Origin: Escherichia phage KIT06
Sequence record: OQ349392.1
Reading direction: 5' to 3' (one strand)
Length of the DNA: 64,000 bases
Position 1 is the stretch's first letter; every line of letters begins with the position of its first letter. The position numbers were made by a program, and so were the translations under genes. Below are positions 2,875 through 8,143 of the stretch, in pieces. Under the pieces are notes generated by a model. It was given only the letters and a program-made list of their open reading frames with translations. It made no database searches and was not told the origin of the DNA.

Positions 2875-3170
2875 TTAAACTATCGGCAGTAATATTATCT
2901 ATTGGTCTTCTAGTTGGTTGTTCGACAAAGCCTCTAGAAGTAAAGAAAGAAACAGTTCATCCTAATTGGCCTGTGCAAATAAAGTCATATGATGAAGCTA
3001 AACTATCTTGGCAAGTTAAAGTTATTGATGGTAAAGCTTGGGTCGGTATGCCATTTGAAGATTCCCAGGAATTTCGTATTTGGCTTAATGATGTAAAACG
3101 ATATGTACATGACCAAAAAACTATGATATGTTATTATCGTCAAGAGCTAAAAGAGGATAAATGTAAATGA
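2871..3170 (+). CDS. Hypothetical lipoprotein-like protein (pseT.2 position), 99 aa
   Basis: ORF track; signal peptide with lipobox-like LLVGCS; ATGA overlap with upstream stop. Confidence 0.6.
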   Translation: MIKLSAVILSIGLLVGCSTKPLEVKKETVHPNWPVQIKSYDEAKLSWQVKVIDGKAWVGMPFEDSQEFRIWLNDVKRYVHDQKTMICYYRQELKEDKCK

Positions 3171-3343
3171 TTTCATGGCATCAATTTGAACATCTCAAAG
3201 GATTGATTTATGAATCCGAGATGGCTGCAATGATTTATGGACGCCAGATTCAACGATTAGAATCTTTGCCTCCAACTAATGATGTTTTATTAGCTCAATC
3301 ACGCGCTAATCTTAAAAATGAATACCAAAATAAGTGGGGGTAA
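3167..3343 (+). CDS. Small hypothetical protein, 58 aa (below ORF-track cutoff)
   Basis: ATG at 3167 overlaps the TGA stop of the upstream ORF (ATGA coupling); open to TAA at 3341-3343; fills an otherwise empty gap in a tightly packed early operon. Confidence 0.4.
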   Translation: MISWHQFEHLKGLIYESEMAAMIYGRQIQRLESLPPTNDVLLAQSRANLKNEYQNKWG

Positions 3344-3394
3344 AGCATCTAAAGACCTGCATGATTATATTCAATCATTGGTTGAGAAAAATAA

Positions 3395-7090: not shown

Positions 7091-7098
7091 TATAAATA
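7091..7098 (+). promoter_or_regulatory. TATAAATA late-promoter motif between gene 31 and rIII
   Basis: Exact TATAAATA right after gene 31 stop; lies 140 nt upstream of the rIII ATG, so its function is uncertain. Confidence 0.3.
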
Positions 7099-7237
7099 AT
7101 AATATGAATTGGGTGTCGGAATAATAAGTTAACCGAACAATTCTATGTGGTAGTCTACAACTGAGAGATCTGTCGAAAGAAGATGAAATTCAGAAGAACG
7201 TGACTACCGAGTTTTAATCTCTAACGAGAATTTTTAA

Positions 7238-7486
7238 ATGATTAAACAATTACAACACGCTCTTGAACTGCAACGAAACGCATGGAATAATGGTCACGAA
7301 AACTATGGCGCATCTATTGATGTTGAAGCCGAAGCTCTTGAAATCCTGCGTTATTTCAAACATCTGAATCCTGCTCAAACTGCATTAGCTGCTGAGCTCC
7401 AGGAAAAAGATGAACTTAAGTATGCTAAGCCTCTGGCTTCTGCTGCACGAAAAGCAGTTCGTCACTTTGTGGTAACACTGAAGTAA
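7238..7486 (+). CDS. rIII: rIII lysis inhibition accessory protein, 82 aa
   Basis: 82-aa ORF MIKQLQHALELQRNAWNNGHENYG matches remembered T4 RIII; position after gene 31. Confidence 0.85.
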   Translation: MIKQLQHALELQRNAWNNGHENYGASIDVEAEALEILRYFKHLNPAQTALAAELQEKDELKYAKPLASAARKAVRHFVVTLK

Positions 7487-7883
7487 TTTATTGGAGATTC
7501 ACTGCCTTAGTGTGAGCTAAAATCGAGGAGCCGTCGAACTGTCTGATTAATGATTTGCGAATCATTATAGTTTTAAGACCCCGGCAGTTTTACGGTGTAC
7601 CTCTTGAATGTTATTCTTATAGCGGCAAGTGCATGCTACCCCGAGGTGATGGCTAATCGGGAGTACGCCTCAAGGCCTATATATCCATCAGTATATATCT
7701 TATCCTCGAGAAATCGAACCCGGAACCTTTAAGCTAACGGTGTGCAACAGATAAGAGCTATAAGGTATGATGACGGGTTTATGGTTATCCTGTCGGTAAA
7801 TATTCAAAACCTAAGTACCCCTTTGAGGGCTTTCGCAGGCAATGCCAATAAGTCCTGCATTTTCATTTAAAAGAGAATTTATA

Positions 7884-8060
7884 ATGGCAAAACAAGCTAA
7901 AGCAAAGAAAGCAGTTGAAAAGAAAGTTGGTGATTCTAAACGCGCTGGCTACAAGCGTGGGTCGAACTCTCGTATCAATCAAACTGTTGAGAAGATCATG
8001 CGCCGAGCACGTGCGGTTCTTCGAGATGATGCTTCTCGTTTTGGTAAGCAGAAAGCATAA
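7884..8060 (+). CDS. Small lysine/arginine-rich hypothetical protein, 58 aa (30.9 position)
   Basis: ORF track 7842..8060; ATG at 7884 (MAKQAKAKKAVEKK...) preferred; followed immediately by a strong hairpin-plus-T-run terminator. Confidence 0.5.
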   Translation: MAKQAKAKKAVEKKVGDSKRAGYKRGSNSRINQTVEKIMRRARAVLRDDASRFGKQKA

Positions 8061-8064
8061 GTTG

Positions 8065-8094
8065 AGGACTCCTTCGGGAGTCCTTTTTTATTTT
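8065..8094 (+). terminator. Intrinsic terminator: 8-bp stem AGGACTCC-TTCG-GGAGTCCT plus TTTTTTATTTT
   Basis: Perfect stem, UUCG tetraloop, long T-run immediately after the 58-aa ORF stop. Confidence 0.65.
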
Positions 8095-8113
8095 CCAAAG
8101 ATTGCACAAAGTT

Positions 8114-8143
8114 GTTTACAGTATAGTTCCTTTGTGATAGTAT
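8114..8143 (+). promoter_or_regulatory. Early-type promoter candidate (GTTTAC ... TAGTAT) within a CACAAAG/CTTTGTG stem-loop
   Basis: gtttac at 8114-8119, -10-like tagtat about 18 bp downstream; upstream of ORF 8171. Confidence 0.45.

Follow-up and report, generated by a model that had tools for sequence, protein, structure and literature searches.

Comparative evidence for an elaborately folded RNA between rIII and gene 30.9 of T4-like phages

Results

An island without longer reading frames separates rIII and gene 30.9

We analysed a stretch of 64,000 nucleotides (nt) of Escherichia phage KIT06 (OQ349392.1; hereafter the window), and in particular an island between rIII and gene 30.9 that lacks longer open reading frames (ORFs). 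The GC-rich core of this island, which we call module A, is predicted by comparison to represent a new RNA family, elaborately folded and of the orphan complex-fold type. The window belongs to a T4-like phage, and its island region is 99% identical to that of Escherichia phage ACG-C40. Between about 5.5 and 9 kb, the genes cd, 31.2, 31.1, 31 and rIII, the gap, and the genes 30.9, 30.8 and 30.7 follow each other, all on the plus strand. The island is flanked by:

7238-7486, plus strand: rIII, the upstream neighbour, on the same strand as the island
7884-8060, plus strand: gene 30.9, encoding a basic protein of 58 amino acids (aa) (phrog_1427, function not assigned; no match in Pfam)
8064-8085, plus strand: intrinsic terminator 3' of 30.9, closing the transcription unit that includes the island

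The original prediction, made from the sequence alone, had placed a non-coding spacer at 7487-7883 and reported that no ORF of at least 60 aa crosses 7487-7841 on either strand. The latter is confirmed by the ORF list and by our own scan of the 64 kb, in which these 355 nt form the longest such run, followed by runs of 224, 155 and 147 nt. The largest ORFs within it comprise 45 aa (GTG, plus strand), 42 aa (GTG, plus strand) and 35 aa (minus strand). Gene 30.9 starts at ATG 7884, as its N-terminus MAKQAK is kept in seven genera and the extension from an upstream ATG at 7842 is not, so that the spacer is indeed 7487-7883. Two smaller statements needed adjustment: the longest ATG-initiated plus-strand frame, given as 26 aa, came to 27 aa by hand count (MANREY...RNL, within the 45-aa GTG ORF), and the other gaps of the region, given as 0-110 bp, include one of 147 nt between gene 31 and rIII (7091-7237). 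The GC content, put at about 58% for 7621-7680 and about 35% for its neighbours, was recounted as 58.3% and, at 7561-7620, 35.0%, with 40% at 7681-7740 and 36.3% in the whole window. The island is no chance feature, since blastn located it in about 990 phage records; for its core the number is 411.

The core is predicted to fold into three arms around a four-way junction

A first RNAalifold run on a MAFFT alignment of eight sequences from eight genera returned a multi-helix structure with compensatory changes in 14 of its 44 pairs. From this structure covariance model R1 was made; a broader model (R2) and a model for a second unit of the island, module B (R3), were used as well. The covariance model of module A recovered 29 of 57 loci, with divergent members scoring 82-104 bits and four copies in RB43-type phages found at 76-82 bits. 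In the window, the predicted elements are:

7618-7762, plus strand: module A, predicted complex-fold RNA of 145 nt, matched by the covariance model at 175 bits
7619-7623 with 7757-7761, plus strand: P1, closing the four-way junction without linker bases
7624-7626/7675-7677, plus strand: H2 of arm 1 (GGC/GCC)
7627-7634 (AAGUGCAU) and 7669-7674 (CUCAAG), plus strand: asymmetric internal loop of arm 1, nearly invariant
7635-7644/7657-7668, plus strand: H3, the long hairpin of arm 1, with loop L3 at 7645-7656
7647-7652, plus strand: L3 half of a kissing loop, UGAUGG, pairing with CCAUCA at 7685-7690
7678-7684/7691-7697, plus strand: H5, the hairpin of arm 2, with loop L5 at 7685-7690
7685-7690, plus strand: L5 half of the kissing loop, CCAUCA, from covariation and mutual information
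7698-7704/7750-7756, plus strand: H6 of arm 3 (UCUUAUC/GAUAAGA), enclosing H7, H8 and the junction GCAACA
7706-7709/7714-7717, plus strand: H7, with a GAAA loop in the window
7718-7722/7738-7743, plus strand: H8 (ACCCG/CGGUGU)
7744-7749, plus strand: arm 3 junction, GCAACA

Across 26 distinct module A sequences, 98.2% of the cells are standard pairs, and 32 of the 44 pairs have changed on both sides (147 such cells). In controls in which the 3' partners were slid by 1-3 columns, 26-42% of the cells were paired and 4-8 pairs showed double changes; none of 500 column shuffles reached any of the observed measures. The pairs comprise 38 G-U cells (GU and UG) and no A-C cell (AC and CA), which identifies the plus strand, the sense strand of the neighbouring genes, as the one that folds. 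The centroid fold of the window copy alone is the same structure. Arm 3 carries a three-way junction, and about 40 unpaired bases of the module are invariant or nearly so; such single-stranded runs are GGCAAG-GCAU, ACCCGGAMCC and GCUAACGGUGUGCAACAG. The loop of H7 is not always GNRA, as UAAA and AUAAUU occur besides GAAA and GUAA. A structured non-coding RNA had been among the candidates of the original prediction, with comparative folding across T4-like phages proposed as a check; this folding yielded a conserved structure with compensatory changes, and that the core is a structured RNA is strongly supported by the covariation.

Over 6-8 bases, the H3 loop is complementary to that of H5, and the two have changed together to give six versions: CGAUGG/CCAUCG, UGAUGG/CCAUCA, CUAUGG/CCAUAG, CAAUGA/UCAUUG, GUUGUAUU/AAUACAAU and UGCAUUU/GAAUGCA. 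Duplexes of at least 6 bp between a copy's own loops are found in 11 of 11 loop combinations, and the kissing-loop columns are the strongest mutual-information pairs outside the nested structure. Judged by this covariation, a 6-bp kiss ties two neighbouring arms of module A, either within one molecule or between molecules. A 3-bp helix ('H4') predicted within L3 was dropped, as it showed only wobble variation and the same bases covary better with L5.

Module A is confined to T4-like phages and is optional among them

According to blastn, T4 and many of its relatives match only 61% of the island, in two pieces, and the block missing from T4, 7610-7762, is exactly the module A stretch. For Klebsiella, Enterobacter and Kosakonia phages belonging to other genera, the identity of this block is 91-96%; for phages of Serratia and Erwinia it is 84-85%. 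At the DNA level, the same genomes are 68-74% identical in rIII and 73-89% in 30.9, and the surrounding spacer is unalignable in those other genera, though module A sits between rIII and the 30.9 homologue there as well. These identities show module A to be under stronger selection than the adjacent proteins.

The block occurs in 411 records, essentially in one copy each, and all of them are T4-like phages of Enterobacterales, save one chance 19-nt match in a microvirus. They represent at least ten genera, with Escherichia, Klebsiella, Enterobacter, Serratia, Erwinia, Yersinia, Salmonella and Kosakonia as hosts. For 22 of the 26 distinct sequences, module A is positioned 105-155 nt upstream of 30.9. 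Fourteen of 19 metagenomic matches were real, and every real one on a long contig was on a phage-sized contig (about 165-175 kb); one match of 21 bits, on a bacterial contig from a metagenome (L084), was without the conserved core and was taken as chance. Scanning 185,579 bacterial and archaeal genomes for 18-mers gave three chance matches, all rejected by the model, and in 5,426 E. coli genomes blastn detected no sequence similar or complementary to module A. Likewise, T4, RB43, CC31-type and Aeromonas-type loci were without a copy when searched with the broader model R2, and the window yielded no second one.

The site between CTTGAATGT and TATGATGACG is occupied by module A, by an unrelated hairpin (D) or by nothing, depending on the phage, and short repeats (GAATG/TATG) are present at the module A junctions. 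In spacers from about 40 phages, module A and the smaller units of the island described below recur in differing orders: E-G-A-B-C in the window, E-G-D-B-C, E-G-B-C in T4, B-A-C in Jiaodavirus, A-B-C in Karamvirus and Kanagawavirus, C0-B-D and C0-A-B. The precise presence or absence among close relatives, the differing positions of the units and a second locus in RB43-type phages lead us to propose that module A behaves as an optional, portable cassette.

Cassette D is a hairpin of about 60 nt at the module A site of other Tequatrovirus-type phages (loci L029:1875-1925, L034, L035, L040, L044 and L046:1830-1875), with the inner conserved sequence GCGUCAG(A/C)AAAAGGUUA(U/G)CUGUCUAAG. A CC31-type phage has D placed after pseudoknot B instead, and the loops of D and of pseudoknot B both contain GGUUA. 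The left flank of module A at 7573-7609, which T4 has too, reads AAGACCCCGGCAGUUUUACGGUGUACC and resembles H8 (ACCCGG...CGGUGU), possibly as a relic or paralogue of a portion of module A, possibly by chance.

RB43-type phages carry module A without a downstream gene

Yersinia phage JC221, Enterobacter phage phi5 and two IMG/VR contigs contain module A after uvsY, uvsY.-2 and a small ORF, facing the convergent genes uvsW.1 and uvsW. These copies keep all helices, with more compensatory changes (for H8, ACCUG/CAGUGU), and their kissing loops pair in a version of their own. Reading the sequence, we see a terminator-like GC hairpin with a T run after it 170-350 nt downstream, and between it and module A there is no same-strand ORF of at least 60 aa, the only frames being of 36-53 aa. 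RB43 itself has the same intergenic region without the module. As module A thus occurs without a downstream gene, it is not tied to 30.9 and is not simply a riboswitch of that gene. By eye, TATAAT- or TAAGAT-like hexamers precede module A in phi5 and JC221; since they are not conserved in the rIII-30.9 context, we claim no promoter.

The interval from uvsY.-2 to uvsW.1 in RB43-type phages is an ORF-poor region of 250-730 nt (L007:500-1232, L101:1486-1828, L102:1487-1740). Some of these regions hold module A, and a GUACCCC..GGGG hairpin was present in four of four loci checked. The region of JC221 includes a copy of hairpin E beside module A, and each genome of Slopekvirus-like Klebsiella phages has two or three places that match parts of the ORF-poor region, which suggests that more small RNA units may be scattered in RB43-type and Slopekvirus-like genomes. 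A 'B-like' pseudoknot suspected in the RB43-type locus was not confirmed by model R3.

Module A matches no known RNA family and is not read as protein

The island was scanned with the 4227 covariance models of Rfam 15, a check named in the original prediction. No match was obtained in 7487-7883 at E-values up to 10, none in the whole window at the gathering thresholds and no relevant one at the JC221 module A locus. Partial matches to Atu_C8 and Phe_leader at 8016-8099 are spurious and correspond to the terminator after 30.9. The earlier impression that the island is no transfer RNA (tRNA), group I intron or known family was borne out: ARAGORN found no gene for tRNA or transfer-messenger RNA in the window, there was no match to Intron_gpI, and, whether or not a phage has the block, its rIII and 30.9 are two intact, distinct genes. 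Self-cleaving ribozymes are among the Rfam models; those of hammerhead, twister, twister-sister, pistol, hatchet, HDV-like, hairpin, glmS and VS type gave no match. Short resemblances to RNase P RNA (GUGCAACAGA, GAACCCGG, UAAGAGC), to the Tetrahymena P4-P6 domain (UAAGCUGACGG) and to the 11-nt GAAA receptor are due to chance, with no match to the respective Rfam models. With its filters off, R1 scored at most 6.6 bits on the tRNA region of T4 (69.5-74.5 kb), and not at rnaC or rnaD. As for the features of a riboswitch, module A shows the covariation-supported helices and invariant junction bases of a conserved aptamer; a consistent upstream position with an adjoining expression platform was not found among its members.

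The original prediction had also considered a cluster of regulatory sites. A consensus scan found neither a sigma-70-type promoter nor a plus-strand terminator within 7487-7883, and the combination of an early promoter with a terminator stem-loop (PeSL) is likewise absent from 7487-7883, a typical pair being present at 8064-8143.

A decayed or frameshifted gene, also among the candidates, was rejected, and no conserved protein-coding frame, named earlier as one refuting finding, came to light. No frame is open in all members on either strand, stops occur in almost all frames of all members (a single frame in JC221 being the sole exception), and the longest open stretch over module A varies from 11 to 50 codons by frame and member. 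The lengths of module A (142-154 nt) differ by non-multiples of three, and the changes in its stems are compensatory. Several records have coding sequences for a 'hypothetical protein' over module A, as in ACG-C40 (ACG-C40_0208a, L004:1557-1751), COW86c_228 (L006:595-729), PhiKpNIH-6 (L010:583-687), JC221 (JC221_170, L007:603-779, minus strand) and many Klebsiella phages; differing in frame and strand, they are probably annotation artefacts.

Our literature search, which did not cover the catalogue of about 10,000 viral RNA candidates (PMC10690425), returned no description of module A, its conserved 16-mer included. The PeSL paper PMC4122927 makes no mention of rIII or 30.9, and a T4 omics paper does not mention the island region.

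The remaining units of the island include a probable leader of 30.9

Besides module A, the island holds further small units and is a mosaic of several self-contained RNA structural units:

7499-7515, plus strand: module E, hairpin UCAC-UGCCUUAGU-GUGA, recurring in many spacers (by eye and by regular expression)
7523-7537, plus strand: module G, hairpin UCGA-GGAGCCG-UCGA, whose loop includes GGAG, conserved in Tequatrovirus-type spacers (by eye)
7547-7566, plus strand: perfect 8-bp hairpin UAAUGAUU-UGCG-AAUCAUUA (by eye; also in the minimum-free-energy fold)
7763-7825, plus strand: module B, H-type pseudoknot, near-universal in the rIII-30.9 spacers examined
7772-7777 (GACGGG) with 7789-7794 (CCUGUC), plus strand: stem S1 of module B, 100% paired, two covarying pairs
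7783-7786 (GGUU) with 7808-7811 (AACC), plus strand: pseudoknot stem of module B, 75% paired, four covarying pairs
7818-7829, plus strand: module C0, short GC hairpin CCCC-UUUGA-GGG with GUA before it
7835-7858, plus strand: stem C, GCAGG...CCUGC (from alignments; GGGAGC...GCUCCC at the same place in other genera)
7860-7877, plus strand: Shine-Dalgarno (SD) hairpin, UUUUC (7860-7864) with GAGAA (7873-7877), covering the SD sequence of 30.9 (by eye)

Module B has the pairing of a loop with downstream sequence that characterises an H-type pseudoknot leader, with both stems supported by covariation. It shows 36 double-change cells compared to 5-14 in slid controls, counted on an imperfect MAFFT alignment, so that its support is weaker than that of module A. 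The linker GUAAAUAUUCAAAA is conserved, and model R3 finds module B in a single copy in the window. Before the pseudoknot, UAUGAUG is conserved in most phages (window 7766-7798); the short ORFs starting from it comprise 10 aa here and 1-17 aa elsewhere and differ in sequence, so that the conservation is not due to the peptide.

In the window stem C is short, whereas Klebsiella and Enterobacter phages extend it into a far larger stem-loop domain, of about 80 nt in the former. The SD hairpin pairs the SD sequence with a run of pyrimidines lying upstream; in other genera, UUCUCC...GGAAGA (by eye) is its equivalent. The original prediction had suggested a long leader for the small basic protein encoded downstream. 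This applies to the 3' third of the island, where the pseudoknot, stem C and the hairpin over the SD sequence are, in our reading, a translational leader of 30.9; it does not apply to the GC-rich core, which also occurs without a downstream gene.

The C0 motif GUACCC..GGG is conserved in both genomic contexts and has a weak terminator-like score on the minus strand. The stem of module E varies from UCAC/GUGA to UCGC/GCGA, and the 8-bp hairpin has the variant AUCGAUU-UACG-AAUCGGU in locus L044. GGAG, which module G has in its loop, is the cleavage motif of the T4 endoribonuclease RegB, so that a link to RegB is possible. The gene just upstream of this hairpin is rIII, which is reported to modulate RegB through ribosomal protein S1 (PMC9409239).

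Further observations concern the neighbouring genes. T4 30.9 is annotated from the upstream ATG (72 aa; record T4T, L001:1703-1744, equivalent to 7842-7883 of the window). This ATG falls within the RNA stem C and its 14-aa extension is not conserved, and on this comparison the T4 annotation is not supported. At 8064-8143, a strong terminator with a UUCG loop gives way, ahead of 30.8, to an early promoter of T4 type (TTTACA, 17 nt, TAGTAT with TG), which makes a typical promoter-terminator junction of PeSL-like kind. The 147-nt spacer before rIII (7091-7237) is the fourth-longest run without an ORF of at least 60 aa in the window, and the T4 late-promoter consensus TATAAATA is located in it at 7091-7098, one base past the stop of gene 31. 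The second-longest such run (224 nt, 3171-3394) contains an ATG-initiated ORF of 58 aa, read by hand at 3168-3344, which looks like an ordinary small gene and no second non-coding island.

Discussion

In spirit, module A comes near both the aptamers of riboswitches and orphan RNAs of the raiA or ROOL kind, but it belongs to none of these groups. With the lysine, purine and cobalamin aptamers it shares parallel arms, a 6-bp kiss, invariant junctions and a P1 stem as well as, for the most part, its place in an untranslated leader; it differs from them in having no Rfam match, no identifiable expression platform and a gene association that is broken in RB43-type phages. The raiA, ROOL, GOLLD and OLE RNAs are, like module A, known by covariation only, contain many conserved unpaired bases and are in some cases carried by phages, whereas module A is much smaller (145 nt), unrelated in sequence and restricted to T4-like phages of Enterobacterales. 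For some of these orphan RNAs, loop-loop complementarity is reported to build RNA-only multimers (bioRxiv 10.1101/2024.12.08.627333).

Among phage RNAs, phi29 pRNA is of similar size and also has two complementary, covarying loops. Its loops, however, link separate molecules into a ring, which sits on the portal of a phage that uses RNA in packaging, and neither its sequence nor its junction type resembles module A; we know of no such RNA in T4-type packaging. Closer to T4, rnaC and rnaD, the species 1 and 2 RNAs of its tRNA cluster, are phage-encoded RNAs of 120-140 nt without an assigned function from a region that is variable among T4-like phages, and they lack an own promoter and are cut out of a longer transcript, as may hold for module A too. 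They differ in genomic location and show no similarity in sequence or structure (R1 at most 6.6 bits); moreover, by our own reading of its sequence, rnaC has a tRNA-like T arm and acceptor end, and module A has neither. Module B, and not module A, is reminiscent of the translational operator pseudoknot of T-even gene 32, being of H-type and preceding, within a 5' leader, the weakly exposed start site of a small protein that looks as if it binds nucleic acids. No sequence similarity between the two was established, and autoregulation by 30.9 would be speculation. Finally, the units of the island resemble PeSLs, cassettes of an early promoter and a terminator stem-loop in T4-type phages (PMC2839356, PMC4122927), in being short non-coding cassettes that border insertions, deletions and replacements in variable regions. 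PeSLs, in contrast, act on DNA and transcription, while the island lacks a sigma-70-type promoter and its units are conserved as RNA folds.

How might module A work? We tentatively favour an autonomous RNA that binds a protein or a ligand. The island would be transcribed on the plus strand together with rIII and 30.9, with module A reached by read-through from upstream promoters, for which the late-promoter-like TATAAATA at 7091-7098 is a candidate. The messenger RNA carrying it would then supply module A, possibly after processing at AU-rich linkers, and the conserved junctions could bind a protein or small ligand in trans. As module A is found in two unrelated contexts, one of them without a downstream gene, we prefer this autonomous role over that of a cis-acting sensor for 30.9.

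The latter, which we consider doubtful, would make module A a riboswitch, or a site for a phage or host protein, possibly 30.9 itself, in the 30.9 leader, so that translation of 30.9 or stability of its message would be set via pseudoknot B and the SD hairpin. Such a role fits the constant position of module A, 105-155 nt upstream of 30.9 and on the same strand in all Tevenvirinae-type members, and its multi-way junction, kissing loop and invariant junction bases, an architecture shared by lysine and purine riboswitches. The SD sequence of 30.9 can pair into a conserved hairpin, and the 30.9 product is a small, strongly basic protein whose conservation is unusually high. However, four members have no same-strand gene downstream, and module A is missing from T4 and many other phages whose 30.9, pseudoknot B and SD hairpin are the same. 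In addition, the units between module A and the start codon vary by genus, with B before or after A and stem C long or short, so that no conserved expression platform abuts P1.

A self-cleaving or otherwise catalytic RNA, splitting rIII from 30.9 or trimming the 3' end of the uvsY operon, would fit the data equally well in kind; having no positive support, it seems improbable to us. The invariant bases are concentrated in junctions and internal loops and not in helices, and a function independent of the downstream gene would suit both genomic contexts. Small ribozymes reportedly often occur in phage intergenic regions near structured units, as Weinberg et al. are said to have found in 2015, which we count in favour of catalysis. 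Yet no Rfam 15 ribozyme family matched at E-values up to 10 or at gathering thresholds, no candidate cleavage site could be named, and with 145 nt and three arms module A is larger than most small self-cleavers.

We regard it as very improbable that the block acts at the DNA level, as an origin, a recombination or homing site or a cluster of protein-binding sites, or that it is conserved merely by recent transfer. The precise boundaries of presence and absence, the short GAATG/TATG repeats and the very high identity between genera would agree with either. But compensatory changes keep eight helices and a loop-loop contact, which a function of double-stranded DNA does not need, and the 38 G-U as opposed to no A-C cells point to a single-stranded plus-strand molecule. 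Divergent members (76-104 bits) keep the fold while their sequence drifts, and no homing endonuclease gene is adjacent. A decayed or frameshifted coding gene can practically be dismissed: the small ORFs annotated over the block in ACG-C40 (64 aa), COW86c_228, PhiKpNIH-6 and many Klebsiella phages vary in frame and extent, the substitutions are paired and not codon-like, and neither the stop codons nor the lengths of the members allow a common frame.

Several points weigh against the autonomous protein- or ligand-binding RNA that we favour. The position upstream of 30.9 in 22 of the 26 sequences would suit a role in cis as well, no processing sites were identified, and the reading presumes a discrete RNA species derived from module A and, purely by inference, a molecule that partners it. 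Furthermore, the alignments used for the pair counts were fitted to the model, which biases them towards the structure; the independent MAFFT/RNAalifold run gave the same helices. The thermodynamic z-score of module A (-0.6) is unremarkable; its folding energy being ordinary, the case for module A is wholly comparative.

The fold has features typical of RNAs with a specific binding partner or a catalytic activity. Possibly, if rather unlikely, module A opens a new functional class of phage RNA, be it a new self-cleaving or ligand-sensing fold or a trans-acting accessory weapon RNA that, for example, binds and neutralises a host defence protein or a signalling nucleotide. If true, this would explain its optional presence among relatives, its portability between loci and the very strong constraint on its sequence. 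The natural knockout in T4 and its close kin, the replacement cassette and the transposition to another locus make genetic tests straightforward, and many of the carrier phages are used in phage-therapy work. For annotation, the comparison corrects 'hypothetical proteins' placed over an RNA and the start of T4 30.9.

T4-like phages are among the most intensively studied viruses, and T4, the reference phage, lacks module A, which may be why it went unnoticed. To our knowledge, rnaC and rnaD are the sole catalogued non-tRNA stable RNAs of these phages and still have no assigned function. Module A would be the third non-tRNA RNA in T4-like phages, and one far more intricately folded than either.

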